IMG/VR virus record: IMGVR_UViG_3300023212_000537
Span: 1-64,000 of that record
DNA from: a virus
Reading direction: 5' to 3' (one strand)
DNA length: 64,000 nt
In this document: positions 3,503-53,130 of the stretch, piece by piece
How positions within the stretch are numbered: position 1 is the first letter of the stretch
How the letters are laid out: every line of letters starts with the position of its first letter
Made by a program: the position numbers and the translations under genes
The notes under the pieces: model-generated
Databases searched by the model: none
The model's input: only the letters and a program-made list of their open reading frames with translations
What the model was told of the DNA's origin: nothing

Positions 3503-4039
3503 TTATTCTTTAACTTTCTTCATTAAATCATTCATTTGCTCACTATATTTTTGCAGATTCTCCTGCATTTGGTTTAGTTGATGTTCTATGATAGTTGTAG
3601 AAACCTGAGCAACTGCATTTACTTTCGCAATCTGCGCAGTACCTTGTGAAAGGGCGGAAATCGCCATGCTGTTCCACGCAAGAAATGATTGCCAGCGTGC
3701 TTTCTCATCAAGGCTCATTACTTTTGTATTAAGATTAACTGCTTCAAAATTAGCCATTTGTATCTGTCTATTTGCGAGATCATGCCTTGATTCAGCATGA
3801 CGAAGTTGATCTACTCCCTCAACTACTTTATAGCCAACTTGATGTTCTGAAATAAGATATCTTTGTTTTTCTTTTGCCAACTTCATGCGGGCTTTATATA
3901 TAGAACTTCTATTTTTTAAAATATCCTCATGAATAGCTTGCGATAATTCTTCAAATGATATAATAGTTCCTGCTTCTTTATCTTTTATATAGTCGTAGAT
4001 TAACTTCCATAAAGCTATATTTCCTTTTGGTGTAAACAT
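3503..4039 (-). CDS. hypothetical protein (178 aa)
   Basis: ORF track; AGGAAGGAA-type SD 6-14 nt upstream of the ATG; coiled-coil-like C-terminus. Confidence 0.6.
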   Translation of the reverse strand: MFTPKGNIALWKLIYDYIKDKEAGTIISFEELSQAIHEDILKNRSSIYKARMKLAKEKQRYLISEHQVGYKVVEGVDQLRHAESRHDLANRQIQMANFEAVNLNTKVMSLDEKARWQSFLAWNSMAISALSQGTAQIAKVNAVAQVSTTIIEHQLNQMQENLQKYSEQMNDLMKKVKE

Positions 4040-10625: not shown

Positions 10626-11368
10626 ACTGTTAATACATTTGTTATATCGCTTTGCTTTTTAATACTCATTAGTTCGCTGAATTGTTTAAGGTAATCTGCT
10701 TTTGTTATTCTTTCTGTTATAACAAGCTGGTATTTTTCCAGTTGTTTTACTAAAAGACGAGGGTTATTTTGCGTTCTGAATATATCAAGAGCCTGTAAAA
10801 ATTCTCTTTTATGCCATGATACAGAGTAAAATTTAAAATCAGAAAGCAGCGTTGCCATTTCACAAGCTATCTCATAATCAAGAATTTTAAATTTCCCTTC
10901 TTTGAAATCTTTGTAAATCGAATTCGTATGCACATAATTTTGCGTTAACAAAATAATGGACATGCCAAGAGAAAATTTATAGGTTTCTATAAACTGTTTC
11001 AATTTCAAATATTCTATTTTCTCAAGCGCAACATAACTATGAAAGTAATCGGTGGTATTCCAGTTCCTCAATGAAGTATTAAGCGTTATAGCATCAGCAA
11101 GCGAAGCCTCTTCCCGAATAATATAATAAATGGGAATAGCAAGGGCTTTTGCCGCAAGTAAGCGGTGCTGGCCGTCAATAATTTCCCCTTCTCCGCTAAT
11201 AACTATCGGTTCTTGCGGTAAAAAGTTTTTTTTACCAATTGAGGAAATCAGTTCTTTTACATGATAGGAAGAAATTGTTCTGTTTCCTGTAATAAAAATA
11301 AATTTATCGTATTCAGTTGTTTCATATACTTGGATATGCGTTGGTTTTCCTATCAATTCCGCTTTCAT
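10622..11368 (-). CDS. ParB/sulfiredoxin N-terminal-domain protein
   Basis: GEGEIIDGQHRLLAAK carries the ParB/Srx DGxHR signature; 248 aa; no ParA partner seen in the window. Confidence 0.7.
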   Translation of the reverse strand: MKAELIGKPTHIQVYETTEYDKFIFITGNRTISSYHVKELISSIGKKNFLPQEPIVISGEGEIIDGQHRLLAAKALAIPIYYIIREEASLADAITLNTSLRNWNTTDYFHSYVALEKIEYLKLKQFIETYKFSLGMSIILLTQNYVHTNSIYKDFKEGKFKILDYEIACEMATLLSDFKFYSVSWHKREFLQALDIFRTQNNPRLLVKQLEKYQLVITERITKADYLKQFSELMSIKKQSDITNVLTV

Positions 11369-11595
11369 TGTCTCTCTCTTTCTTTAATCGCTTCTCTTAT
11401 CTCTTTGGATAACGCTTTTAACGCTATTTCTTCTCCCAGCGCGGCGTGATTATAGTCTTTTGCCTTTCCCAAATAGGTAGTATACCCAAGAGGGCTTTTA
11501 GGATTATGGCTCATGCCGTATGCATCACTGCCAATAATTATTGTATAACGATCAAATGATTTTCCTTTATTATCAAATACCACAACATTTTTCAT
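11365..11595 (-). CDS. hypothetical protein (76 aa)
   Basis: ORF track; 4-nt overlap with the downstream ParB-like gene. Confidence 0.5.
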   Translation of the reverse strand: MKNVVVFDNKGKSFDRYTIIIGSDAYGMSHNPKSPLGYTTYLGKAKDYNHAALGEEIALKALSKEIREAIKERERQ

Positions 11596-23628: not shown

Positions 23629-25829
23629 TTTATTACAAAGAATTCATTGAAGATAATTTCCTTATTCTTGATAAAGATACCCAGCAACCAGTTCCTTTTA
23701 CTTTTAAGCCTGTTCAAGATAAATACTATCAAATATTACAGGAAGAATATAAAACCATGGAAGGATTGCGGGAGTTAATCTTGAAAGCAAGGCAAGAGGG
23801 ATTTTCTTCCATTATTCTTGCTCTTTTTACTGTAGATTTTATTTTTGTTCCGTATTCTATTTCTATTTGTATTGCCCATCGCAAAGATATTACAGAACTT
23901 TTATTTAAAAAAGTAAAATTTTATCTTGAATCTTATTGCACAAAAAACAAATTAAACATTCGCGAGTATTTAAAAACAGATAATAAAAACTTCATTGAAT
24001 CACGGGTAAAAAACTCTATTTTTTATATCGGAACCGCAGGCTCAAAAGTTGGAGGAAGAGGAGGTTCGGCAAGAAACCTGCATTTCAGTGAGGCAGCTTG
24101 GTACCAGGATACGGAACTTATTACAGCCTCAGAAATTGTTGAAGGAACAAGTCAGCAAGTACCGCAGGGGAAAGGAATGATTTTTATCGAATCGTGTGTC
24201 TCGGGAGATACTTTGGTGAATACTTCTTCTGGTTATCATAAAATAAAAGATTTTTTCAAAGATAAAAAAATTGGTTACACAAAGATAAATAATCTGCAAT
24301 TATTGGGTAGATACGGTTATCAGCCTGTTTCTCATTTATATTATAATGGTGAAACAAAAAACTTGAGAATTGAAACGCAAAGCGGATATTCATTAATCGC
24401 AACAAAAGAACATCCCCTATTATCCCTTGATAAAAATGGCATAAAAAAAAGCCAAGTTGGTAATCTACAAATAGGTAATTATGTTTGTATTTATGGAGGA
24501 GAAAGTAGTTTTGGTAATTATGATTTACAAAATAACTTCCATTCAGAATCCAGAAAAGGTACGCGGTATAATATAAATAAATTTAATCCTAAGCAGGTAA
24601 GTTCCCAGAATTTAGCCTATTTCTTGGGATTATTTTTGGCCGAAGGATATGCAAGGCTTAAAAAAAGTGGTTCTTATATTACATTATCCAGTGGCGATAA
24701 TGAAATTCATGAATCATTACAAAAGATAACGGGAATAAATTGGGTAAGAAATGATATATTTCATTCACGATGTATGAAAAGATCATTGGTCGAATTTATA
24801 TCATTTCTTGGTTTTTCTTTCGAAAAAGCTCCTTATAAAATTATTCCTGATATAGTATTAATATTATCCCAAGAAAATTTAAAAGCATTTATCCAAGGCA
24901 TGTTTGATGGTGATGGATGTTCTGAGAAAACGCATGGTGACATATCCTATGTAACAACAAGTAAAAAAATAGTTGAAACATTGCAAATCCTTTTATTAAA
25001 GTTTGGTATTTATAGCGCCATCAGAACGCATCCGCCGCATACGGGAGGAAAAATTTATGAAAGACAAATCGGACAAGGACGACAACCTTCTTATCAATTG
25101 GAATTATCAGGAAGAAACAGTTTTCTTTTTTATGAAAAAATAGGATTTAAGTTACAAAGAAAACAACAAAATAAAGATAAATTGCCTAAGAATTTTAATA
25201 ATGAATCAATCCCTTTAATAAGCCAAGGACTATTAAAAGAGTATATAAAAGAACATGAAGCTTCTTATAATTCTTTGCATAAAAGACTATCTACAGCAAG
25301 ATTATATTGGGGAGGAGGAATTACTCAAAAGAAATTAAAAAAGATATTACATGTAATAGGAGGAGAAAATATCATGCTTAATGAATTGGCATATGCTCCT
25401 TATCGATGGGAAAAAATTAAGAAAATAAATTCAATTACATGTGAAACATATGATGTGACTATTCCCAATGGACATACATTTGTCAGTAATGGAATACTTG
25501 GTTTCAATACAGCAAATGGCGTAGATAACTTTTATCAAAAAGAGTGGGAACGCGCGCATGAATTTGATAAATACGGCAAAAGGAAAAGTACCTATATACC
25601 ACGGTTTTTTGGTTGGCAGGAATTCTATACGAAAGAATGGGTTGAGCAGAAAAAAGGTGATTTTGCAACAGAAGCGAAGTGGATGCAAGAATACCCAGGT
25701 GATCCCCAGCAGGCTTTTATAGCTTCGGGAACTCCCTTTTTTGATAATCTTATTTTAGAAGAAATGAAGAAAAAAGCGCCAAAGCCTATTTATCAGGGAC
25801 GGCTTGCTCCTGATGGTATGTTCTTATAA
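23625..25829 (+). CDS. terminase large subunit, ATPase part, interrupted by an intein
   Basis: LKARQEGFSS (Walker A-like), GGSARNLHFSEAAWY, GMIFIES then CVSGDTLV..; exteins 23625-24194 and 25509-25829. Confidence 0.8.
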   Translation: MIYYKEFIEDNFLILDKDTQQPVPFTFKPVQDKYYQILQEEYKTMEGLRELILKARQEGFSSIILALFTVDFIFVPYSISICIAHRKDITELLFKKVKFYLESYCTKNKLNIREYLKTDNKNFIESRVKNSIFYIGTAGSKVGGRGGSARNLHFSEAAWYQDTELITASEIVEGTSQQVPQGKGMIFIESCVSGDTLVNTSSGYHKIKDFFKDKKIGYTKINNLQLLGRYGYQPVSHLYYNGETKNLRIETQSGYSLIATKEHPLLSLDKNGIKKSQVGNLQIGNYVCIYGGESSFGNYDLQNNFHSESRKGTRYNINKFNPKQVSSQNLAYFLGLFLAEGYARLKKSGSYITLSSGDNEIHESLQKITGINWVRNDIFHSRCMKRSLVEFISFLGFSFEKAPYKIIPDIVLILSQENLKAFIQGMFDGDGCSEKTHGDISYVTTSKKIVETLQILLLKFGIYSAIRTHPPHTGGKIYERQIGQGRQPSYQLELSGRNSFLFYEKIGFKLQRKQQNKDKLPKNFNNESIPLISQGLLKEYIKEHEASYNSLHKRLSTARLYWGGGITQKKLKKILHVIGGENIMLNELAYAPYRWEKIKKINSITCETYDVTIPNGHTFVSNGILGFNTANGVDNFYQKEWERAHEFDKYGKRKSTYIPRFFGWQEFYTKEWVEQKKGDFATEAKWMQEYPGDPQQAFIASGTPFFDNLILEEMKKKAPKPIYQGRLAPDGMFL
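24195..25508 (+). mobile_element. intein with LAGLIDADG homing-endonuclease domain (438 aa) in terL
   Basis: N-terminal splice block C-VSGDTLV; LAGLIDADG blocks LAYFLGLFLAEGYA and FIQGMFDGDGC; C-terminal ..VSNGILGFN followed by the +1 Thr; length is a multiple of 3. Confidence 0.8.
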
Positions 25830-29696: not shown

Positions 29697-31841
29697 ATGG
29701 CCGAGATTGCTGTAAATCGAGATAGTGCTAACGCGAATGTGTTGCCAAATGCGCGTGATGAATTAACCGTCTTTACCGAAGTTCGCAGACACGCTGATAT
29801 TGGATTTAATGATACACAGAGACGAACGCTCGGCAAGCAACGGATTGGTTCTATTTCTTTTAATGAAGCGGATGAAATGTTTCGTTCTTGGATAGAAGAA
29901 AATAATTGGCCATATGATGCATTGCTTTTTGATCCTCGCATCTTTACTTTTATTTTTGAAAAAACTTCCCGTCTTATTGCAGCTAAACCAAGAGGAAAAC
30001 TGCAACCTCGAACTTCCTCTGATATTATTGCGGCAAAAATTAATAATGCAATTCTTGATTCTCAATGGGATTTGGCAAATTATGGAGGAACCATGATTTC
30101 CAAATGGTCAATGATGGATATGAATACCCGTAAATACGGTGCTGCTTTCGGACTTAATAAATGGCGATATGAATTAGGAGAAGAAGGAAGAATCCTGTAT
30201 GACGGACCTGAAATGAAAGTATTAAATAATCGGGATTGCGCATTCGATTTAACAGCGACCACGATTGAAAGTTGTAATTGGTTTCAGGTACGCGAGTATC
30301 CAACATTTCAGCAATTGGAAGCAATTAATGATCGCGCAAAAGGAAAACCTGTCTATAAAAATCTGGAAAGACTTCGTGAAGCAATTCTAAAAGGATCACT
30401 CGCAGGAGGAGATACAAGGGGAGTAAATTGGATTTCACGAAATCGTCAGATCTCTCGTATTGAACAGGATCCAACAGGAAAAGATTTTGTTTTCAAAACA
30501 GTTGAACTTGTTACCGAATATAGAAGGGATAGATGGATTACTTTTGCTCCACGACATGGCGTTGTTATTAGAGATATTCCTAACCCCTATAAAAATTATG
30601 AAATTCCTATTGTCATGCTTCGCTATTATGCCATTGATGATGATCTCTATGGTTTATCAGAGATTGAACCTGTAAAAGGACTACAAAAAGCGATCAATGC
30701 GCTTTTATGTCAATACGTTGATGAAGTAAATCAAAAATTATATACGCCAATTGCTGTAGGGCCTGGTGTTCGGCAGCATACATTGGAATGGGGAAAAGGT
30801 GCTCGTTGGCAAATGAATAATCCTATGACTGATTTTCGATTAGTGGAACCAAATTCCAATGCGGCGCAACTATTTAATCCGACCTATTCTATGCTTGTTT
30901 CTGCGATGCAAAATGCATTAGGAGAATCATCGCTTGGTATTTCCAATATGGCTCCATTTCAAAGAGATAAAACGGCAACAGAAGTAAGGCAGATTTCCAA
31001 TCAATCAAATGCTCGCGATAATTATAATCAGATTTTTCTTGCAGAGGCAATTGAGCGGCAAATGAAACTTTGGTATTCCATGAATCAAACACTTCTTTTT
31101 ACTGATGAAAAGAAAAAATATTATGTTATGCGAGTTGTAGGAAAGGAAACATTGCAGGATTTGCAGCAGGAAGGATTATCGGAAATGGTTGTTCCTGATG
31201 AAGCGTACATGATGCTTCTTGCTCAAGGATCAACAGATACAGGAGCAGGTGTTGCGAACGCAAAAAAAATACCAAAAGTTGCGGTGAATATCGGTAATGA
31301 AAAAAACCCGAATTTCGTACCAAAACTAAAAATGCTTCCTGATCAAAAAAGCGCTGAATTATATATTGAGCCACAGGATATGGAAGGAACATTCGATTTT
31401 GTTGCCGATGTTGAGACAATGACAAACAATGCAGATGATATGCGTAAGCAGGCAAGACAGGCAGCAATTTCTCTGATTGTTTCTAATCCTAATGTTACAG
31501 CACTTTTACAGCAAGAAGGATTCCAGCCAAAATTTAAAGAATTATTTGTGGAATGGTTAGAGGATATGGGATTTAAAGATGCAGATAAATTCTTTGGGCC
31601 TGTTGGTCAAAATCCAATACAGCATCCAAATCTTCCCACAAACGGACAACAACAACAGGCAAATGGACAAGCTCCTCCTCCTGAAACGGGAAGTCCGCAA
31701 GTAGCAACGCCTAATGGAATGAGACCGACATTTCCACTTGATCGTAATGCGAACGTTTATAGTCCATTTAGTCAATTCGGACAATTTGCGCCAGCACCTG
31801 TTGCGCCAGCGCCAAAAGCACAGCAGCAAGGAGGATATTAA
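29697..31841 (+). CDS. portal (head-to-tail connector) protein
   Basis: 714 aa; position after terminase and before scaffold/capsid; Q/P-rich C-terminal tail; call by size and synteny. Confidence 0.6.
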   Translation: MAEIAVNRDSANANVLPNARDELTVFTEVRRHADIGFNDTQRRTLGKQRIGSISFNEADEMFRSWIEENNWPYDALLFDPRIFTFIFEKTSRLIAAKPRGKLQPRTSSDIIAAKINNAILDSQWDLANYGGTMISKWSMMDMNTRKYGAAFGLNKWRYELGEEGRILYDGPEMKVLNNRDCAFDLTATTIESCNWFQVREYPTFQQLEAINDRAKGKPVYKNLERLREAILKGSLAGGDTRGVNWISRNRQISRIEQDPTGKDFVFKTVELVTEYRRDRWITFAPRHGVVIRDIPNPYKNYEIPIVMLRYYAIDDDLYGLSEIEPVKGLQKAINALLCQYVDEVNQKLYTPIAVGPGVRQHTLEWGKGARWQMNNPMTDFRLVEPNSNAAQLFNPTYSMLVSAMQNALGESSLGISNMAPFQRDKTATEVRQISNQSNARDNYNQIFLAEAIERQMKLWYSMNQTLLFTDEKKKYYVMRVVGKETLQDLQQEGLSEMVVPDEAYMMLLAQGSTDTGAGVANAKKIPKVAVNIGNEKNPNFVPKLKMLPDQKSAELYIEPQDMEGTFDFVADVETMTNNADDMRKQARQAAISLIVSNPNVTALLQQEGFQPKFKELFVEWLEDMGFKDADKFFGPVGQNPIQHPNLPTNGQQQQANGQAPPPETGSPQVATPNGMRPTFPLDRNANVYSPFSQFGQFAPAPVAPAPKAQQQGGY

Positions 31842-33061: not shown

Positions 33062-33163
33062 CACATTTACATCTTGAAGCTAAAAAACAAAATTCACAAC
33101 CTGCAGTGGATGGTTGCCCCCGCCACTTTTATAAACAAGAGGGCATGATAGAAAGGAGGTGAA

Positions 33164-34078
33164 GTGAATATGGCAGATCCAGTACCAGCGCAACAACCTG
33201 TGCAGCCAGCACAACAGCCAATACAGCCAGTTGCTCCCGTATCTGTCCAGCCAGAATTACCAGCACAGCAGCCAGTACCGCAAGCACCAGTACAGGTGGT
33301 TTCGGAACAACCGCAAGTAGTGCAACGGCCAGTGGAGACGGAAGACAAAACGAGGTATGGGCAAGAAATGGATAAATTGAAAGAACATAATCGAAGACTG
33401 TTTGAAACAAATCAATTATTACAAACAGAGATTCAACGAAGAATGCAATTTAACCAGCAATTTGCTCCTATCCAACAGCAAGGACAAGTAGTGCCACAGC
33501 AACAATTAAATGAAGAAGATTTTGTCACAATAGATCCTTTGACAGGAGATCGATTTATTGATGAGCCAAAATTACGTCAAGCATTAACGCAAGCGCGGCA
33601 GGAAGCAACAACGGCACGTACAGTTGTGCAAAATTATATTAATTCATCTGAGCAACGGGAAGTACAACGGCAGGAGAAAGAGACATTCGCAGTTTATCCA
33701 GAATTAAATCCTAATTCGCAAAATTTTAATGCGAATATGTCAAATCAGGCAAGTGCATTGATCTTTCATTCGCTTGTTGCTCCGCAGAATTATGGTGGTC
33801 GCCCGCTTACTTTTTTAGAAGCGGCCAATATAGTAACAGGCGGACAACAAAAGGGAGTGCCACAGTTACAACCTGTACAGCAAAAAGCGCAACAACAAGG
33901 ATCACAAGCTCAAGAAGCAAAAGAGCAAGCATCAGTAACGTTGCAATCGCAACCACAACAAGTTCTTCCTTCAAATAATCCAGAACTGGAAACATTGCGA
34001 ATGCGAACACGACTTGGTGATGAAGAAGCACTTGCTAAAAGAATTTTAAATACTGATCATGTAATGAAACATGAATAG
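33164..34078 (+). CDS. scaffolding-like protein
   Basis: 304 aa; Q/P-rich N-terminal repeats (QQPVQPAQQPIQP), coiled-coil centre; located between portal and capsid; GGAGGTG SD. Confidence 0.5.
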   Translation: MNMADPVPAQQPVQPAQQPIQPVAPVSVQPELPAQQPVPQAPVQVVSEQPQVVQRPVETEDKTRYGQEMDKLKEHNRRLFETNQLLQTEIQRRMQFNQQFAPIQQQGQVVPQQQLNEEDFVTIDPLTGDRFIDEPKLRQALTQARQEATTARTVVQNYINSSEQREVQRQEKETFAVYPELNPNSQNFNANMSNQASALIFHSLVAPQNYGGRPLTFLEAANIVTGGQQKGVPQLQPVQQKAQQQGSQAQEAKEQASVTLQSQPQQVLPSNNPELETLRMRTRLGDEEALAKRILNTDHVMKHE

Positions 34079-34160
34079 TGTTGGGATCCACACCCCACGC
34101 TATGAGAAGTTTTTTCTTCTCTAAAGAAAAATCTAGTGTGGGGTAGGAGGTGAATGATGA

Positions 34161-34208
34161 ATGGCGTGGGGTTTAATTACGTATCAAGATGCGGGACGTA
34201 GAGAGGAT
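34161..34208 (+). CDS. major capsid protein, exon 1 (16 codons)
   Basis: MAWGLITYQDAGRRED; GGAGGTG SD 10 nt upstream; joins in frame to LMDVLADVSPDETP at 35100, restoring the ..TY....REDL.D....SP..TP N-terminal pattern I recall for this capsid family. Confidence 0.65.
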
Positions 34209-35099
34209 TAAATTAAGATATTTGCACTTTGACAACTGAAAGGAACTTGATTATAATAATCACATGAATTTTATCTGCTTGATTTGCAAGAAAAGTTTTT
34301 TTTCTTACAACAAAAAGAGAAAAACATGTTCTAAGAAATGTTCTGCAATTAATCAACAGAGCAGAATTATTAGGCAATGCGATTTTTGTAAAAAGAATAT
34401 TTCTAGAGTACCAAATGAATTAAAATATAAAAACATTTTTTGCGATAAAGTATGTCAACATAAATGGCAGAGACAGCATAAAATGAGGTTCTTTCAATTG
34501 AGGAATAAGAAATGGTGCATGGAGAAATATAAGGAAAAATCTCTAAAACAGATAGCAGAGGAAATAGGATGTGGAGAAACGATCATATATAAATACTTCA
34601 AAATTCATGGGATTAAATTAAACAGAGAACAATGGATTTCAGGCGATAAACATTATCTATGGAAAAATGGCATAACGCCATTTTATAAAATGATTCGTAA
34701 TCGGAGAAAATACTTTCATTGGCGACAGGAAGTTTTGAAGAATAATTTGTTGCAATGCATTTCATGCGGATCAATTAAAAACCTTGAAGTAGATCATATT
34801 AAAAAATTAAAATTTATTCTTGTCGATAATACTATTAAAACTATAGATGATGCGATGCGGTGTGAAGAGTTATGGGATATAAAAAATGGAAGAATTCTTT
34901 GTAGATCATGTAATCTTTTACGCGAGAAAAAATACATCTAAAATGGTCCTCTATAAAGCAGGCTAAACGGCGAACGGAAGAACTCCCAACGTCGTACCAA
35001 ATAAAAAAGGTCTAGAGACTATACACCTGCTGCTATAAATTAAATAATATATAGTAATGAAATAGTCCGATACTCTTAGGAATAGGAGATTAACAATCG
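34209..35099 (+). mobile_element. group I intron (891 nt) carrying an HNH homing endonuclease
   Basis: exon 1 ends in U (gaT) and the intron ends in G (aatcG). An in-frame TAA follows the 5' splice site directly. The 158-nt 3' core has GCAGG (34958-62) pairing with CCTGC (35026-30). CTAAACGGCGAAC..GGTCTAGAGAC resembles the T4 td intron core from memory. Confidence 0.65.
34264..34941 (+). CDS. HNH homing endonuclease (intron-encoded)
   Basis: N-terminal Cys-rich zinc fingers; C-terminal LEVDHIKKL..NGRILCRSCN HNH motif; own promoter TTGACA (34229-34), 17 nt, TATAAT (34252-57), with the ATG 6 nt downstream. Confidence 0.85.
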   Translation: MNFICLICKKSFFSYNKKRKTCSKKCSAINQQSRIIRQCDFCKKNISRVPNELKYKNIFCDKVCQHKWQRQHKMRFFQLRNKKWCMEKYKEKSLKQIAEEIGCGETIIYKYFKIHGIKLNREQWISGDKHYLWKNGITPFYKMIRNRRKYFHWRQEVLKNNLLQCISCGSIKNLEVDHIKKLKFILVDNTIKTIDDAMRCEELWDIKNGRILCRSCNLLREKKYI

Positions 35100-35960
35100 C
35101 TTATGGATGTACTCGCAGATGTCTCGCCAGATGAAACTCCGCTTTTAACACTCTTTGCCACAAGTACGGCAAGAGGGACGTTACATGAATGGTTAAAATA
35201 CAATATCACCAGACCAACAACGGTTTCGGCAGATGTTGAAGGTGCGGATATTACGTTCTCTGATTTAACACAACCATCAAGAACAAATAATATCACTCAA
35301 ATTATCAATCAGGCAGTTCAGGTTTCCAGAACTGAACGCAAAGTAAATGTTGCTGCAATGGGAGATCCATATGCATTCCAAAAAGCAGATGCATTAAGAC
35401 AGTTGAAAATGAAAATGGAATATGCAATTCTTAATGCGGCAAAAGCATCAGGAGCATCAGGATCGGCAAGACAAATGCAAGGCGTGGATGCCTTTATTGC
35501 AACACTTGTGACTGCGAGAAATTCAGGAACATCCTATTCTGAACAGGAACTGAATGATATGGCATCTGATTCATTCAATACAGTGCGTGCAGATAAAGTG
35601 TTTGATATGTTACTGTGTACAGTAAAAATCAAGCAGGCAATCGCAGGATTCGCGGGAAATTCAACAAGATATATTGATGCAGCGGATAGACGCTTAACAA
35701 AAGATATCTTGGTCTATGATTCAGCCGTTGGTTCTCATAGAATCATGCATCATAGAGATGTCCGTAATAATGCGGGATCAACAACTGTATATGGATTAAG
35801 AGAGGATATGCACCGAGTGGCATATCTTGATAAACCATTATTTGATGAATTAGCAAAAGTCGGCGATGCAGATCGCGGACGCTGGGTAACTGAGTTTACA
35901 TTGGAAGTTCTTGAAGAAAGAAGTGACCAAAAAAGAACGGGGTACGCACAATCAGGATGA
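35100..35960 (+). CDS. major capsid protein, exon 2 (HK97 fold, DUF5309/SU10-like)
   Basis: DVLADVSPDETPLLTLFATSTARGTLHEWLKYN.. is the family N-terminal signature; 285 aa; downstream of scaffold. Confidence 0.8.
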   Translation, partial: LMDVLADVSPDETPLLTLFATSTARGTLHEWLKYNITRPTTVSADVEGADITFSDLTQPSRTNNITQIINQAVQVSRTERKVNVAAMGDPYAFQKADALRQLKMKMEYAILNAAKASGASGSARQMQGVDAFIATLVTARNSGTSYSEQELNDMASDSFNTVRADKVFDMLLCTVKIKQAIAGFAGNSTRYIDAADRRLTKDILVYDSAVGSHRIMHHRDVRNNAGSTTVYGLREDMHRVAYLDKPLFDELAKVGDADRGRWVTEFTLEVLEERSDQKRTGYAQSG

Positions 35961-36101
35961 TGGGTGATGGTCTGTAATGGCAAATGGGGTTATATAAAAC
36001 GCAAACTTGCTCTTTGGAATGCTTCCCCAAGATATAAAAGAGACACAGGCGAGATGATTGCCAAAATCAGTTTCGCCTACACAAGAAAGGGAAATAAAAA
36101 T

Positions 36102-36431
36102 ATGCCTGCTGTTGGTTTTAAAAAAGATGTACAATTTAAATTCTATGCGACTCGTTCGGGACTCACGAACGTAAAATCGCTTCGCGATCATATGCGTGCT
36201 TATTATGTATTACGGATTGGTGGGCCTGCTGCAAGTGTTAAAACACTTTCGGATTTGGAAAAACAATGGCTTCGTCTTGTTATTACCACGGCAGGTGGAA
36301 CACCTGTAAGTAATTATTTATCTATGTTATGGAAACAGGCAGTTGCAATAAAAGGATTAACAGCAACAAATATGGTTGAGGAAAATCAAATTACTTACTG
36401 GTCATTAGTAACATCAGTAAATGGATTATGA
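36102..36431 (+). CDS. hypothetical head-associated protein (109 aa), paralog of 36428..36751
   Basis: start moved to MPAVGF; shares DLE.QWL..G..SNY.SMLWK..G....N.I.YW with the next ORF. Confidence 0.5.
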   Translation: MPAVGFKKDVQFKFYATRSGLTNVKSLRDHMRAYYVLRIGGPAASVKTLSDLEKQWLRLVITTAGGTPVSNYLSMLWKQAVAIKGLTATNMVEENQITYWSLVTSVNGL

Positions 36432-36751
36432 GTGCGACATTTTTACGAAATATTCAACGAAAGTTTTGGATGACTCATACAACAGGCGTTACTGCGCAAA
36501 CGCCTTTTGGATTACTTGCGCGTATGTATTGGACGCAGTATCTTGCTGATCCGACAATTACTATTGCTAATACCACTTATGCAGATCTACAGATTCGTTG
36601 GATGAAAAAATGGATGAATGATCATGGCGTAGCGCCGCCTAATACAAAATATATGCAAGTATTATGGAAATATCTTGTGGGATCAGCAGGAATTGCCCCA
36701 AGCAATTTCACCAGAGATAATGAAATTCAATTTTATTTAAACGCGCCGTAA
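36428..36751 (+). CDS. hypothetical head-associated protein (107 aa), paralog of 36102..36431
   Basis: ORF track; 4-nt overlap. Confidence 0.5.
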   Translation: MSATFLRNIQRKFWMTHTTGVTAQTPFGLLARMYWTQYLADPTITIANTTYADLQIRWMKKWMNDHGVAPPNTKYMQVLWKYLVGSAGIAPSNFTRDNEIQFYLNAP

Positions 36752-36754
36752 GTA

Positions 36755-36784
36755 TTGACAACAATAATAAAAGAATGATTTAAT
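36755..36784 (+). promoter_or_regulatory. late-type promoter (TTGACA..TTTAAT class)
   Basis: TTGACA (36755-60), 18 nt, TTTAAT (36779-84); ~200-nt leader with hairpin TAGTCG/CGACTA (36794-36816). Confidence 0.45.
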
Positions 36785-36982
36785 AGAAGTATAGTCGCTT
36801 TAGTAGAACGACTACAAAGTGATCAATAGAAGTTTTCTTTTATCTCTCCAATGATAAAGGATGGACTGTTTTATTGGTCGCTTTTTTTGTGGGATATATA
36901 AAGGGTCATTCCCTCGTCGGCGCACGTTCCATACGAACAAGTCGGGAGGTATGTATTTCATAAGAAGAGGCAGGTGAAATCT

Positions 36983-37204
36983 ATGGCAACAAATATTCCT
37001 GTAAATAAAAACAATCCAAGTATTAAACCTACAGATCAACCTCTTGGAAAAAATGCGCAAATTGGCACAGCCAATAAAGATGCATTAACAAAAAAAGCAC
37101 CAGCGTCTATGGGATATAACGTTTTTGATTATACTGATTATTTTAATCCTGATGCTGGTATATATGGAGGGTTTCGTGGTTTTACTGATAAGAAAGGATA
37201 TTAA
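36983..37204 (+). CDS. hypothetical protein with C-terminal YGGFRG motif
   Basis: ..FDYTDYFNPDAGIYGGFRGFTDKKGY; paralogous C-terminus in the next ORF. Confidence 0.5.
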   Translation: MATNIPVNKNNPSIKPTDQPLGKNAQIGTANKDALTKKAPASMGYNVFDYTDYFNPDAGIYGGFRGFTDKKGY

Positions 37205-37512: not shown

Positions 37513-37572
37513 GGATTTGCCAATCGCATACAAACAAGCTATATCTTTTGCAGAATACTTGTTGTGGTATTT

Positions 37573-40023
37573 ATGGAGCAGAAACCAAAATTATATTTAT
37601 CGATGATCATTAAAGATGATGAGCCTATTGCCATCGTTAAACGATCACTTGATAGCGTTAAAGCATTTGTTGATGCTGTTTATGTAGCAGTTACCTATAC
37701 AAAAGTTCAACCTTCTGATTCTCCTTTGCTTACTTTCTTACAAGAAGAAAAAGTACATCTTTCTTTTTTCCAATGGATAGATGATTTTGCTGCTGCGCGC
37801 AATTTTGCCATAAATCAAGTGCCGAAGGGGTCTGACTGTTTTATTTATTGGCATGATGCAGATGATATTGTTGATAAACCTGCCCTTCTTCCTCAAATTG
37901 CTTCTGAAATGTATGCAAATAATGTAGCTGCATATTTTTTCCCTTATTTATATATGGTTGAGCTTGATAAAGAAGGAAATATTAGAGAAATATTAGTGGA
38001 GCATAAACGAGAACGGTTAATTAGAAACGATGATACATTCAAATGGATTGGCGAACTTCATGAAACGCTTATTGAACAACGACAGGAGAATGTACAGAAA
38101 TATATGCGTCCAGATATCAGCGTTATTCATTTATCTGATGATAAACGGATTATGACAAATTTAGAACGTAATATTCGCATTTTAGAAAAAAAATTGAAAA
38201 AAGAAGAACATCGTGATCCGCGAACGGTTATTTACCTTGCGAAAGCATATTTTGATAAAGGAAAAGGTCTTGAAGATCGCAATGAACGAAAAATGTGGAT
38301 TGATCTTTCTCTTGTTTTATTTCGGGAATATTTGGAAGGGGAAGGAAAACCAGGAACAAAAGAGTATCGGGAAGGATCGGGATGGGCAGAGGAACGCTCA
38401 ACTGCATGGGCATATGTTGCGGATATATTTCGTATGTATAATAAACTGGATCAGGCAATCGAAGCAATTAATTATGCAATTGATGAGGCACCGCAATTTC
38501 CTTCTTATTATGTTGACAAAGCAGCATTATATGTTATGAAACAAGATATTTCTCGCGCGCAACATTGGTTACTTTTAGCAACGAATGTAAAAGAACCAGA
38601 AACAACAATTGTTACTATGCCTCGTGATTTGAAAGTAAAAGCATTAGAAGTTGATTATCATGTTGCGCTTGCTTCTCAAAAACTGGAAAAAGCACAGCAG
38701 GATTTAGAGCTGCTTCTTTCCATTTTGCCAGGAAACGTAGCATTTGAAGAAAGACTTGCGCAAGTAAAAAAACTTATTATGGCAAATCGAGCGTCCCAAT
38801 CGATTGTTTTTTTAGGAAAATATCTGGAAGAAACGAAAGAGGAAGAAAAAGTTCCCTATTTAATTCGGGCAATCCCTAAAGATTTAGAAGTTGAAAAATT
38901 TTCTTCAGAAATGCGTCATCGATTTATGCAACCGCGTCTTTGGGAAAAAAATGAAATTGCTATGCTTTGTGGACCTGGATGGGAAACATGGAGTCCAAAA
39001 AGTATTGCAACAGGACTGGGTGGATCAGAAGAAGCAATTGTATATATGAGCCAGGAATTAACAAAGCTGGGATGGAAAGTAACTGTCTATGCTAATCCAG
39101 CAGAACATTCGGGAGAATATGATGGAGTAGTATATAAGCAGTGGTATGATCTAAATCCAAAAGATCACTTTAATATTTTGTTTTTATGGCGCGCTGTTGG
39201 ATTTGTTGACGTTTCACCAAAAGCAAAATACAGCGTACTTTGGATGCACGATATTCCTAATAATCCAGATTTTACACAGGAACGAATTGAAAAAATTAAT
39301 AAAATTGCTGTGCTTTCCGATTATCATAAATCTCTTTTCAGAATGCAGAAAAAAGACGGCTCTTTTGTAAAAATTCCTGATGAAAAGTTTTTCCGTACTG
39401 CTAATGGTATTTCTTTGCAAGATCCGAAAGATTGGAACGGTGATTCCCATAAAATGATTTATGCATCCAGTCCTGATCGGGGACTTATATATCTGTTAAA
39501 TAACTGGAAAACAATTAAAGAAGCGGTGCCAGATGCAACGCTTGATATCTATTATGGATTTGCTATTTTTGATCGAATATTTGCCAATAATCCAGGACGA
39601 ATGGCATGGAAACAACAGATGATGCAGTTAATGGAACAGGATGGTATTACCTATCATGGCCGAGTGGGACATAAAGAACTGGAAGATGCTTTTGCGAAAG
39701 CGGGTATATATGCATATCCAAGTGACTTCCAAGAAATCTCGTGTATTTCTTTAATGAAAGCGCAAGCGTTGGGTGCAGTACCAGTTGTTACAAATTATGC
39801 AGCGTTAAAAGAAACAGTGCAAAATGGAGTAAAAGTTGATTGCGATATTACTACTTCAGAGGGACAGAAAATATATATACAAGCACTTATTGATATGCTC
39901 AAAAATGAAGAAGAGCAGAAAGAGATTAGAAAGACAATGGTACCATGGGCGCGTGAATATTTTCCATGGAATAAAGTTGCGCATGATTGGGATAGTTTAT
40001 TTACCAAGGAGGTGAAAGAATAA
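37573..40023 (+). CDS. multidomain glycosyltransferase (GT2-like N-terminus, TPR-like middle, GT4/GT1-like C-terminus)
   Basis: LSMIIKDDEP..WHDADD (GT-A DxD); helical repeats; GGSEEAIVYMSQELTKLGWKV..EISCISLMKAQALG (GT-B). Confidence 0.65.
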   Translation: MEQKPKLYLSMIIKDDEPIAIVKRSLDSVKAFVDAVYVAVTYTKVQPSDSPLLTFLQEEKVHLSFFQWIDDFAAARNFAINQVPKGSDCFIYWHDADDIVDKPALLPQIASEMYANNVAAYFFPYLYMVELDKEGNIREILVEHKRERLIRNDDTFKWIGELHETLIEQRQENVQKYMRPDISVIHLSDDKRIMTNLERNIRILEKKLKKEEHRDPRTVIYLAKAYFDKGKGLEDRNERKMWIDLSLVLFREYLEGEGKPGTKEYREGSGWAEERSTAWAYVADIFRMYNKLDQAIEAINYAIDEAPQFPSYYVDKAALYVMKQDISRAQHWLLLATNVKEPETTIVTMPRDLKVKALEVDYHVALASQKLEKAQQDLELLLSILPGNVAFEERLAQVKKLIMANRASQSIVFLGKYLEETKEEEKVPYLIRAIPKDLEVEKFSSEMRHRFMQPRLWEKNEIAMLCGPGWETWSPKSIATGLGGSEEAIVYMSQELTKLGWKVTVYANPAEHSGEYDGVVYKQWYDLNPKDHFNILFLWRAVGFVDVSPKAKYSVLWMHDIPNNPDFTQERIEKINKIAVLSDYHKSLFRMQKKDGSFVKIPDEKFFRTANGISLQDPKDWNGDSHKMIYASSPDRGLIYLLNNWKTIKEAVPDATLDIYYGFAIFDRIFANNPGRMAWKQQMMQLMEQDGITYHGRVGHKELEDAFAKAGIYAYPSDFQEISCISLMKAQALGAVPVVTNYAALKETVQNGVKVDCDITTSEGQKIYIQALIDMLKNEEEQKEIRKTMVPWAREYFPWNKVAHDWDSLFTKEVKE

Positions 40024-47565: not shown

Positions 47566-48258
47566 ATGAAAAAGCATTGTAAACAATGTAAAAAAATATT
47601 GTATGGGCGGAATAAAGATTTTTGTTCACGTATATGTCGGGGAGAATCACAAAAATTGGGTAAATGGATTATTTGTAAGACATGTGAGAAAGAAATTCGT
47701 TTGCCTTTATTCCGACTAAGAAAAGGTGCGAAATTTTGTGGAATAAATTGTTATGGTGCATGGAGAAGAACAATTACATTGTCAAAAGAGCATAAAAGAA
47801 GAATAGGTATAGCTGGTAAAGGAAGAATTGTCGCAAAAGAAACTAGAGAAAAAATAAGACAAGCTAATATGGGGAAAACATGGTCTGAGGAGAAGAAAAA
47901 GAAAATGAGCATGATTAAGCAAGGTGTTAAAGATAAGAAAACTTGGAAAGGATTTAAAAATTCTCTTAATAGAAGAGATAGATTAAAATTTCAGAGAGAA
48001 ATACAAAAACAAATATTTCAACGAGATAATTATACTTGTCAAATATGTGAAAAAAAAGGAGGCATTCTTCATGTGGATCATATTCAGTCTTGGTCAGAAT
48101 ATATTGAACTTAGATTTAGTATGAAAAATTTAAGAACACTTTGTCGATCTTGTCACTATTTAATTACTTTTGGGAAAATTATGCCCCTTGAGAGTAAATG
48201 GGGTATTTCTTTTATGCCTCATAACGAAAAGTTAAATCATGAGGAGAAAGGAGCGTGA
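47566..48258 (+). CDS. HNH homing endonuclease (free-standing)
   Basis: N-terminal CxxC fingers, NUMOD-like KEHKRRIG/ETREKIRQANMG repeats, ILHVDHIQS..NLRTLCRSCH. Confidence 0.85.
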   Translation: MKKHCKQCKKILYGRNKDFCSRICRGESQKLGKWIICKTCEKEIRLPLFRLRKGAKFCGINCYGAWRRTITLSKEHKRRIGIAGKGRIVAKETREKIRQANMGKTWSEEKKKKMSMIKQGVKDKKTWKGFKNSLNRRDRLKFQREIQKQIFQRDNYTCQICEKKGGILHVDHIQSWSEYIELRFSMKNLRTLCRSCHYLITFGKIMPLESKWGISFMPHNEKLNHEEKGA

Positions 48259-49606: not shown

Positions 49607-50179
49607 ATGATATGCTTACGATACTGTTTATTGTGCAAAAAGGAATTTAAGAGGCAACTATCTCCTGATAATATAAAAAGGGGGAAAGGGAAATATTGTA
49701 GTAAAGTATGCTGCCGTAAACATTTTGATCTTTTAAGAAAAGAGGGGAAAATTAAAATATATTATGAAGGATTAAAATTTGGCAGATTGGGTAAAAATAT
49801 CTTGGATAAAGAATCTTTTCGAGAGAAAATTTCTAAATCGCTTTTAGGGAAAACTGGAGAATTATCAAGAAACTGGAAAGGCGGAGTTAATCCCATCAAC
49901 AATAGTATTCGAAGAAGAAAAATATATAAAGAATGGAGAAAGATGGTATATGAACGCGATAATTATACTTGCCAAATATGCGGAATAAGAGGAATAGAAC
50001 TCCACGCAAATCATATTAAGAAATTTTCAGATTATCCAGATTTACGTTTTGAAATTAATAATGGAATAACATTATGTAAACGATGTCATCAATTAGTAAC
50101 ATGGAATGAGCAAGAGTGGGAAAGTTATTTTAATTTTTGCTGGGAGAATAAATTTCTACAAAAAGGAGGAATAATTTAA
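49607..50179 (+). CDS. HNH homing endonuclease (free-standing)
   Basis: ERDNYTCQICG..ELHANHIKK..NGITLCKRCH. Confidence 0.85.
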   Translation: MICLRYCLLCKKEFKRQLSPDNIKRGKGKYCSKVCCRKHFDLLRKEGKIKIYYEGLKFGRLGKNILDKESFREKISKSLLGKTGELSRNWKGGVNPINNSIRRRKIYKEWRKMVYERDNYTCQICGIRGIELHANHIKKFSDYPDLRFEINNGITLCKRCHQLVTWNEQEWESYFNFCWENKFLQKGGII

Positions 50180-52242: not shown

Positions 52243-53130
52243 ATGAAAAAGAATTGTCGGATTTGCAATAAAGAAATCATAAAAGTTTCTAAAATTAGTA
52301 AAAAACAGTGGAATTCCAAAAAATATTATTCATGGAGTTGCCGTGCAAAAGGAGTTGGTTTAGATCAAACAGGTAAAAATAATCCCCATTATGATAAGCA
52401 TAATAGTTCTTGGAATAAAGGGAAAAGTTGGTCTAATGAATCAAGAAAAAAAATGAGTATAGCGCATATCGGAATGATTTCACCACTTAGGGGACGAAAA
52501 AAGAAAAATACAGTATGGAATAAAAATAAAATTGAATGGAAGAAATGTATGGAATGTGGAGAATTAACTAGAAAATGGAAAAAATATTGTTCTTTGGATT
52601 GTGCTAAAAAAAGAGAACCATGGAATAAACAAAAATCAATTGATAAAAATTGTATTATTTGTCAAAAATTATTTCAAACCACAGGAAAAAATAAAAATAA
52701 GATATGTTGTTCGGATACTTGTTCAAAAATTCAATCAGGAAAAACAAAAAGTGGAAAAAACCATCCAATGTTTGGAAAAACTCATACAAAAGAAGCTCGA
52801 GAAAAGATAAGCCAAGCACATAAAGGAAAACGTGGTTGGAATTATAAAGGAATAACGCCGATTAATAAACTAGAACGGAGAAAATTTAGAACAGAAATGC
52901 AACATCTTGTTTTTGAAAGAGATAACTATACTTGCCAGCTTTGTGGAACAACACAAGATTTGCAAGTAGATCACATTCAACCGTGGGCAGAATACGTAGA
53001 ACTCCGATTTAAAATGGAAAACTGTAGAACAGTTTGTGCAAAATGCCATTATTTTATAACTTTTGGTAAACCAATGCCTAAGGAAGTAAAAGGATGGGGA
53101 CATAATTTATTAAAGAAAGGAGGAAATTAA
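52243..53130 (+). CDS. HNH homing endonuclease with NUMOD3-like repeats
   Basis: GKNNPHY, GKNHPMFGKTHTKEAREKISQAHKG; ERDNYTCQLCG..LQVDHIQP..NCRTVCAKCH. Confidence 0.85.
   Translation: MKKNCRICNKEIIKVSKISKKQWNSKKYYSWSCRAKGVGLDQTGKNNPHYDKHNSSWNKGKSWSNESRKKMSIAHIGMISPLRGRKKKNTVWNKNKIEWKKCMECGELTRKWKKYCSLDCAKKREPWNKQKSIDKNCIICQKLFQTTGKNKNKICCSDTCSKIQSGKTKSGKNHPMFGKTHTKEAREKISQAHKGKRGWNYKGITPINKLERRKFRTEMQHLVFERDNYTCQLCGTTQDLQVDHIQPWAEYVELRFKMENCRTVCAKCHYFITFGKPMPKEVKGWGHNLLKKGGN

Follow-up and report, generated by a model that had tools for sequence, protein, structure and literature searches.

A very probable group I intron with an HNH endonuclease gene in its P1 loop splits the SU10-type major capsid gene of an uncultivated phage

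Capsid-gene introns that carry HNH endonuclease genes are already known in phages. The capsid gene of the mycobacteriophage LittleE (Cluster J) contains a group I intron with an HNH gene, and its splicing was shown by reverse transcription PCR and protein sequencing; the lactococcal phage Tuc2009 is cited in the same work for a capsid-gene intron (PMC3706429). In phage T4, splicing suffers when an intron open reading frame (ORF) is translated, and translation of the ORF from read-through transcripts is silenced. The T4 intron endonucleases have intron-internal promoters, a hairpin hides their Shine-Dalgarno (SD) sequence on long transcripts, and loss of this control lowers splicing of td (PMC2988022). 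Here, the major capsid gene of an uncultivated phage of ~93 kb was analysed in IMG/VR record IMGVR_UViG_3300023212_000537 (contig 93,123 bp), of which positions 1 to 64,000, referred to below as the window, were covered. The gene lies at 34161 to 35960 on the plus strand, within the structural module, has two exons, and is with high probability interrupted by a group I intron in which the loop of the P1 helix holds an HNH gene.

The annotated capsid ORF begins at ATG 35103 and encodes 285 amino acids (aa). The original prediction held that this start lies inside the conserved N-terminal region of the protein, and that a 16-codon exon with a strong SD sequence further upstream joins it in frame at 35100; both statements were borne out. 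Exon 1 (34161 to 34208, plus strand) comprises the 16 codons MAWGLITYQDAGRRED, with U34208 as its last base. Its ATG stands directly 3′ of an in-frame TGA, 8 nt after the SD sequence AGGAGGTG (34145 to 34152, plus strand; read directly), and corresponding boxes, GGAGGTG or GGAGATG, precede exon 1 at the related loci L001, L005 and L011. Exon 2 (35100 to 35960, plus strand; first bases LMDVLADVSPDETP) contains 286 codons and a stop, and the frame CTT ATG GAT... that opens at 35100 continues to the stop codon at 35960. The joined exons encode a 302-aa capsid protein of the SU10 type (PF17236). Against the Pfam profile SU10_MCP (292 positions, cut-off 24.1 bits), which exon 2 matches with an E-value of 2.5e-60, the 285-aa ORF alone scores 204.9 bits from profile position 16, and the spliced protein scores 213 bits and covers positions 7 to 283. 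PHROG 1328, 'major head protein', matches the capsid protein at 1.4e-58 and shows the same gain on joining of the exons.

Among 5.8 billion protein clusters, 466 capsid homologues were found at E ≤ 1e-10, and the best 120 were inspected. Nearly all of these 120 are exactly 302 aa long and cover 100% of the joined protein at 75–87% identity, and the uninterrupted ones start with MAWGLITYQD..RREDL(M/L)DV(L/I)(A/G)DVSPDETP. Annotated phage capsid proteins of ~30% identity align from query residues 5–12, within exon 1. The family thus does not naturally start at MDVLADVSP, where the annotated ORF places its N-terminus. Three short homologues were found, and all three are truncated public gene calls, in line with the original prediction that standard ORF calling would misannotate such genes. 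In P0002 (locus L001), the gene has an insertion at the same site as in the window; in P0084 (L002/L003), a different intron lies 33 nt further downstream; and P0101 (L004) is preceded by the 3′ tail of the same intron, on a contig that ends 55 nt upstream of the gene. The capsid exons of the window are 94% identical to P0002, and purifying selection is evident.

In the intronless relative L005, the DNA is contiguous across the site and reads ...AGAGAGGAC TTG ATG GAC..., that is ...GAGGAC|TTGATGGAC. The expected spliced junction in the window is ...AGAGAGGAT|CTTATGGATG... (RRED-LMDV). This junction cannot be shifted, because Asp16 requires GAU or GAC and the base preceding exon 2 must be removed. 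The exact 24-nt spliced junction was absent from metagenome contigs, and neither an intronless twin nor a cDNA-like contig was found there.

The 891 nt between the exons (34209 to 35099, plus strand) are assigned to a group I intron by an Rfam match, by covariation and by comparison with the intronless L005. The base identities given by the original prediction were all found: U as the last base of exon 1, an in-frame TAA (34209 to 34211) immediately after the 5′ splice site, and a terminal (omega) G at 35099. The 5′ strand of P1, AGAGGAU|U (34202 to 34209, plus strand), contains the 5′ splice site between 34208 and 34209 and was recovered by RNAalifold as alignment columns 6–13 paired with 27–34. 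The internal guide sequence GGUCCUCU (34945 to 34952, plus strand), which is the 3′ strand of P1, begins 4 nt past the stop codon of the intron ORF. In P1, exon AGAGGAU (34202 to 34208) pairs with GUCCUCU (34946 to 34952) through a U34208•G34946 wobble and six Watson-Crick pairs.

The catalytic core, P3 to P9, occupies 34958 to 35088 (plus strand), as judged by the Rfam alignment, a single-sequence fold and covariation. The GCAGG/CCTGC pairing that had been noticed earlier is P3 (34958–34962 with 35026–35030). P4 (34967–34972 with 34990–34995), P5 (34976–34978 with 34984–34986), P6 (34996–34998 with 35009–35011, ACC/GGU), P7 (35017–35022 with 35062–35067, GACUAU/AUAGUC), P8 (35031–35037 with 35050–35056) and P9 (35073–35078 with 35083–35088, GGAA loop) complete it, and the terminal G follows at 35099. 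The core is compact, with 155 nt from the guide sequence to the terminal G, and has no P2, P5abc, P7.1/P7.2 or P9.1. A stretch that the original prediction had likened to the T4 td intron corresponds to the core that group I introns share in general (J3/4-P4 and J6/7-P7). When a 185-nt construct without the P1 loop was folded as a single sequence, P1, P3, P4, P5, P8 and P9 were obtained at -41.3 kcal/mol (z = -2.47).

A permissive scan of 1.1 kb (34100 to 35200) with the Rfam model RF00028 (Intron_gpI) gave a match at 34897 to 35089 (44.8 bits, E 6.1e-10), in which P3 to P9 are aligned at high posterior probability and the AGACUA of J6/7-P7 and the AUAGUC of P7′ fit the consensus. The model forced its P1 and P2 onto the end of the ORF; the intron has no P2, and the real 5′ strand of P1 is located 737 nt further upstream. 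The score falls short because P1 is displaced and P2 is missing. A scan of the whole window at the gathering threshold gave no match, nor did a joint scan of loci L001, L002, L004 and L005 by E-value, though the core of L001 (2854–2997) is nearly identical to that of the window. The miss in the joint four-locus scan is a filter effect, not evidence of absence, and compact group I introns of this type easily escape routine scans. In searches against 50,697 annotated phage records, megablast of 33100 to 37000 and blastn of the 158-nt intron tail found no match.

The strongest support for the RNA structure comes from comparison of related introns. RNAalifold, applied to nine non-redundant copies, predicted P1, P3, P4, P5 and P9 unguided, with compensatory change in 14 of 34 pairs. 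At the 5′ splice site, 9/9 copies have the U•G wobble. At P1 position -7, five copies have A-U, two U-A and one G•U, and the change to U-A accompanies a synonymous change of the Arg codon from AGA to CGU. All nine copies have U before the 5′ splice site and the terminal G, which the L004 fragment shares; the first intron codon is TAA in six, TGA in two and CAA in L039.

A custom covariance model built from guide-to-terminal-G segments gave 58 matches in the fetched loci and a single one in the window (34945 to 35099, 148 bits), which is the sole intron of this class there. Pairs were counted in the 20 best matches over 28 pairs, with P7 entered as a pseudoknot. Pairing cells made up 99.5% of those observed, against 78.0% after shuffling (0 of 500 shuffles as high) and 29–42% when the alignment was slid; double-change cells numbered 118, against 36 and 10–28, respectively, and compensatory change occurred in 15 of the 28 pairs. 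This 20-intron alignment was fitted to the model and favours the structure, whereas the result from MAFFT and RNAalifold is free of that fitting. P7 is invariant across copies and hence gives no evidence from covariation. The P8 hairpin, checked separately as the alignment is off by one column, is present in 20/20 introns with differing stems and mostly GNRA loops. In relatives, P6 consists of a (G/A)CUAAAU...UAAAUG(U/C) frame around a variable hairpin, which is lost in the window and in L001.

In every ORF-bearing copy the guide sequence is found 3′ of the ORF. An ORF-less intron at the same codon boundary was obtained, like the copy in L039, by pattern scans of IMG/VR: that of L020 (IMGVR_UViG_3300027819_000054, 11274–11442) is 169 nt long, consists of P1 and P3 to P9, and has its guide sequence 14 nt after the 5′ splice site, with a P1 loop of 14 nt. 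Therefore, the promoter and ORF of the longer copies form a cassette inserted in the P1 loop (L1). The ORF is in L1 and not in a downstream peripheral loop, which refines the first interpretation of the locus. If active, the intron of L020 would be unusually small for group I; to our knowledge, the 205-nt Azoarcus intron is the one cited as the smallest that self-splices. In several copies, including those of L001 and L039, the ORF overlaps the guide sequence or P3, and ribosomes that translate it would therefore break P1.

The covarying core and the ORF-less copy also bear on an alternative without splicing, in which a free-standing HNH gene has split the capsid gene and the capsid is built from the 285-aa product of ATG 35103, with or without the 16-aa peptide of exon 1. 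Free-standing HNH genes are frequent elsewhere in the genome (47566, 49607 and 52243), AGGAG is present 15 nt upstream of ATG 35103, and gene callers annotated this very product. However, this AGGAG forms the 3′ side of P9 and stands too far from the ATG, the 155 nt past the ORF are a covarying group I core, and the U•G pair and terminal G fall at the exact in-frame junction. The first 16 residues are, in addition, conserved in all uninterrupted homologues, and the ORF-less copy of L020 at the same codon boundary would be inexplicable if no splicing took place. This alternative is scarcely credible. Interruption of the capsid gene by a group I intron with the HNH gene in its P1 loop is, by contrast, held with high confidence, and covariation in the 20 introns and the RNAalifold result on nine copies uphold the original assignment.

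The ORF in the P1 loop (34264 to 34941, plus strand; 225 aa) matches PHROG 1271 'HNH endonuclease' with an E-value of 5.1e-13 and is annotated here as an HNH homing-endonuclease gene. Its product has N-terminal CxxC zinc modules, a central helix-turn-helix-like region and a C-terminal HNH nuclease domain of the H-N-N form. The endonuclease family in the same protein clusters comprises 14 proteins including that of the window, and in alignment with the 13 relatives C165-x2-C168, D177-H178, N208 and C213 are invariant and C216 is nearly so. Nine homologues could be placed on a contig (L001, L011–L016, L056 and L057), all of them between a scaffold-like gene and a 5′-truncated SU10 capsid gene. 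An AlphaFold2 model was obtained with pLDDT 83 and pTM 0.40; Fis/NtrC-type DNA-binding domains and YacG-type zinc fingers were matched weakly at the level of single domains (E 0.9–5). A sequence search of the PDB with the family profile returned nothing meaningful, and tblastn against the same phage records gave one weak partial match, in Bacillus phage Goe17. The product is classed as a putative HNH-superfamily endonuclease of the H-N-N variant, with activity predicted from its sequence.

Three free-standing HNH genes are also present on the plus strand (47566–48258, 49607–50179 and 52243–53130), among structural or tail-region genes. Two of the three match PHROG 1271, and all three keep the canonical final His. 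The gene at 49607–50179 begins 14 nt after the preceding ORF, and its last base is the first of the following ORF.

Several observations weigh against the reading of the locus as an active intron with a homing endonuclease. At most one or two pairs of P10 can form, P6 has only 3 bp, and L8 is AU-rich in both the window copy and L001. The Rfam score of 44.8 bits is below the gathering cut-off of 50, and the match is lost in larger scans. In the nuclease, the last metal ligand is N217, as Asn is found at this position in intron-borne members and His in distant ones. Pfam gives the ORF no HNH match (PF01844 matches 4/13 relatives, with a best E-value of 9.9e-7), and the best PDB match, the HNH endonuclease SciA of phage T5, is weak (probability 0.94, E 0.12, TM 0.23–0.38).

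Some of these features could be explained by a decaying intron, impaired in splicing, in a defective or mis-assembled metagenomic genome: the contig is uncultivated, P6 is short and L8 AU-rich relative to relatives, and P10 is weak. Yet every core helix is intact in the window copy, the ORF is open with its catalytic residues preserved, and the capsid exons are under purifying selection. The short P6 is, moreover, shared with L001 despite endonucleases that are only 67–68% identical, so that the short form has outlasted considerable divergence. Decay is therefore considered very unlikely, and a two-exon capsid gene with a mobile group I intron is strongly favoured as the explanation of the whole.

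A promoter of the sigma-70 type is predicted within the P1 loop (34229 to 34257, plus strand), with TTGACA at 34229–34234, a spacer of 17 nt and TATAAT at 34252–34257. The original prediction had noted these boxes and an ATG 6 nt later, and the scan added that this is the sole 12/12 match to TTGACA-17-TATAAT on either strand of the 64-kb window and the sole match above 9/12 in a 5-kb scan. The placement of the -10 box recurs in other copies. In nine copies, the -10-like hexamer is TATAAT, TAATAT, TAAAAT or TATATT, and its distance to the start codon is 6, 9, 7, 6, 9, 6, 6, 8 and 7 nt, although the bases between the two show no conservation and eight of the nine endonucleases, as aligned, are 46–67% identical to that of the window. 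Where the -35 box is weak, the -10 box is of the extended TGn form. In L002, the intron at a neighbouring site contains an unrelated ORF, the start of which shows TTGACA-17-TAACAT-6-ATG.

Neither an in-frame start codon nor an SD sequence is found upstream of the endonuclease ATG. Transcription usually begins ~7 nt past the -10 hexamer, and given this geometry the transcript is expected to begin at the A of the AUG in the window and within 3 nt of it elsewhere. Whether the endonuclease mRNA is leaderless, and splicing thereby insulated, is put at about even chances on these grounds. It is proposed more tentatively that the P1-loop cassette represents a so far undescribed means to keep endonuclease translation off splicing, the ORF being read only from transcripts of its own promoter. 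A limited literature search found no paper joining leaderless expression with a homing endonuclease and a group I intron.

The sequence around the -35 box is also conserved, with GCAC just 5′ and ACT just 3′ of it (TGCACnTTGACAACT), in the window (34224 to 34237) and in L001, L011, L012, L013, L056 and L057. A promoter would not need these flanks, which may form an RNA element or an operator for a protein. A T4-style operator that resembles the homing site was sought by eye, and no convincing similarity was seen.

Such conservation past the hexamers in most copies favours a different account of expression, in which the intron is real but TTGACA-17-TATAAT either does not function as a promoter or is not what drives the gene. 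SD-independent internal initiation on the pre-mRNA or the excised intron would then yield the endonuclease, and the conserved sequence would serve, for example, as a P1-loop RNA element or protein operator. The promoter was scored against the sigma-70 consensus, on the assumption that the host uses promoters of this type. Several copies have poor -35 boxes, among them L015 (AACACA) and L039 (TTTACC). In L056, the homologous start codon is GUG (GTG in the DNA), and in Escherichia coli leaderless mRNAs generally initiate poorly at GUG. Among 55 crudely called ORF starts in the window, only 20 have even a 4-mer SD, and internal initiation independent of SD may be common in the host. Since many ORFs lack an obvious SD, its absence was dropped as a mark of an exceptional endonuclease gene. 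Against this account stand the sole 12/12 match in 64 kb on both strands, the spacing of 6–9 nt between -10 box and start codon in nine copies with wholly different intervening sequence, and the extended -10 of the weak -35 copies, which fits promoter logic. The unrelated ORF of L002 has the same arrangement, and T4 intron endonucleases typically have intron-internal promoters (PMC2988022). The account without a working promoter is judged unlikely, though clearly less so than the two alternatives considered above.

With an intron-borne promoter, the following course of events can be proposed. Late transcripts from an upstream start would carry exon 1, the intron and exon 2, and ribosomes on the 16 codons of exon 1 would terminate at the TAA that opens the intron. 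The exon end AGAGGAU would pair with the guide GUCCUCU 737 nt downstream to form P1; the core P3 to P9 would bind guanosine and cut after U34208 by the standard two-step, guanosine-initiated pathway; and the terminal G35099 would direct ligation of the exons to give the mRNA for the 302-aa capsid protein. The host-type promoter in the P1 loop would meanwhile produce a leaderless endonuclease mRNA that starts at or within 3 nt of the AUG. On the long capsid pre-mRNA, the same AUG would be internal and poorly used, and ribosomes would leave the ribozyme folded. In co-infecting relatives, the endonuclease would presumably nick or cut capsid alleles that lack the intron, near ...AGAGAGGA(C/T)|(C/T)T..., the presumed target in the intronless allele being ...AGAGAGGACTTGATGGAC..., and repair of the cut allele would copy the intron in (homing).

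The distribution of the intron is patchy, as would be expected of a mobile element. The insertion site is intronless in P0001, P0003–P0081 and L005, and is occupied at the identical codon boundary in the window, L001, L011–L016, L020, L039, L056 and L057. All endonuclease homologues examined are at this same site even though the capsid genes have diverged, and the nearest capsid relatives have no intron. In the capsid family as a whole, introns are inserted after nt 14, nt 48 and nt 81 of the coding sequence, that is, at three sites within 81 nt. All three are occupied in L056, two in L015 and in L016, and only the middle one in the window.

The site 33 nt downstream, VSPD|ETP (equivalent to 35132|35133 in the window), holds a second, different intron in L002 (1840–2743), L003, L015 (2955–3232), L016 and L056 (~2330–2640). 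It has the guide GUCUGG and a terminal G, lacks an ORF in L015 and L016, contains a 198-aa ORF in L002, and is absent from the window. The third site, after nt 14 (MAWG-L; equivalent to 34174|34175 in the window), is occupied in L056 (600–1323) by an intron with a P1 of GGGGUUU/GGGACCCC and a 176-aa ORF. The two internal exons of L056 are 34 and 33 nt long. A further group I core (62 bits with the custom model) was found in L002 at 3573–3716, at the very 3′ end of the gene and beginning at the stop codon annotated for the capsid protein. If splicing joined ...ACTGGGT to ATAACCAGAACGGTTAA, the C-terminus RTGYNQNG* that is usual in the family would be regained, in place of the unspliced look-alike RTGYNING*.

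In IMG/VR, 40 contigs contain the core motif TAGAGACUAUAYAC...AUAGUCCGA. When the translation downstream of the intron was inspected by eye, several of them (L021, L026, L031, L032 and L052) seemed to have the intron at an equivalent N-terminal position in capsid-like genes that are more distant. In L017, L019, L023, L042, L045 and L053, the same J6/7-P7-P9 core is followed by sequence ending in GGTTCGA(C/T)TCC, which resembles a tRNA T-arm and suggests group I introns in tRNA genes of viral contigs of 80–176 kb. No tRNA genes were found in the window.

The capsid gene is accompanied on the plus strand by a terminase-like gene (23625–25829), a portal gene (29697–31841), a Q/P-rich ORF at the position of the scaffold gene (33164–34078) and a large glycosyltransferase gene (37564–40023). 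Between the scaffold-like gene and the SD sequence of the capsid gene, CCCCACGCUA and UAGUGUGGGG form a 10-bp hairpin (34093–34102 with 34134–34143), the 3′ strand of which stops one base before the SD sequence. It is kept with differing sequences in L001, L002, L005, L011 and L015, which suggests a conserved element that may act in processing, termination or translation control.

As a consequence of the intron, standard gene calling shortens the capsid protein of the window by 17 residues. Calls of 271–279 aa at other intron-bearing loci look like the same truncation, and the call in L057 extends into the intron. Given that capsid genes are used as phage markers, such truncation affects phylogeny and structure prediction. 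The introns collected here also make up a well-supported resource for comparative work on a compact group I ribozyme of phages, with at least 20 covarying sequences and the 169-nt ORF-less form. The promoter and potentially leaderless AUG in the P1 loop suggest a testable route by which endonuclease expression could be reconciled with the splicing of a very highly expressed late gene. Three intron sites within 81 nt and a fourth at the 3′ end of the gene constitute a natural system for the study of competition between selfish elements, and this clustering bears on whether intron endonucleases are weapons between co-infecting phages (compare PMC11620839).

The intron described here resembles that of LittleE in several respects. 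Both are located in a highly expressed major capsid gene, have U before the 5′ splice site and a terminal G, contain a gene for a putative HNH homing endonuclease, and are absent from close relatives. The capsid families differ, that of the window being of the SU10 type. In LittleE, the endonuclease gene is leftward, opposite to the capsid gene, whereas that of the window is co-oriented, lies in the P1 loop and has a consensus promoter of its own. Splicing was demonstrated in LittleE and is deduced from sequence in the window. The encoded protein shares with phage HNH nicking endonucleases (PHROG 1271 and T5 SciA) the beta-beta-alpha-metal motif with two CxxC pairs, the D-H general base and the conserved Asn, as well as modular N-terminal DNA-binding parts. 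It differs in the final His, which is replaced by Asn in the intron-borne members.

With the T4 introns, the locus shares mobile phage group I introns with endonuclease genes that have promoters inside the intron, and an apparent uncoupling of endonuclease translation from the read-through pre-mRNA that would leave the ribozyme undisturbed. The means differ: T4 uses phage middle or late promoters with an SD that a hairpin sequesters on long transcripts, whereas in the window the promoter is of the host consensus type, an SD is absent, and the transcript is predicted to begin at the start codon. The ORFs of the T4 introns are in P6 or P9 loops, and the T4 cores include P2 and P7.1/P7.2; in the window the ORF is in the P1 loop, and P2 and P7.1/P7.2 are absent. 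What sets the present element apart from these systems is that its ORF is co-oriented with the capsid gene and placed in the P1 loop, together with the host-type promoter with a putative leaderless start and the very compact core.

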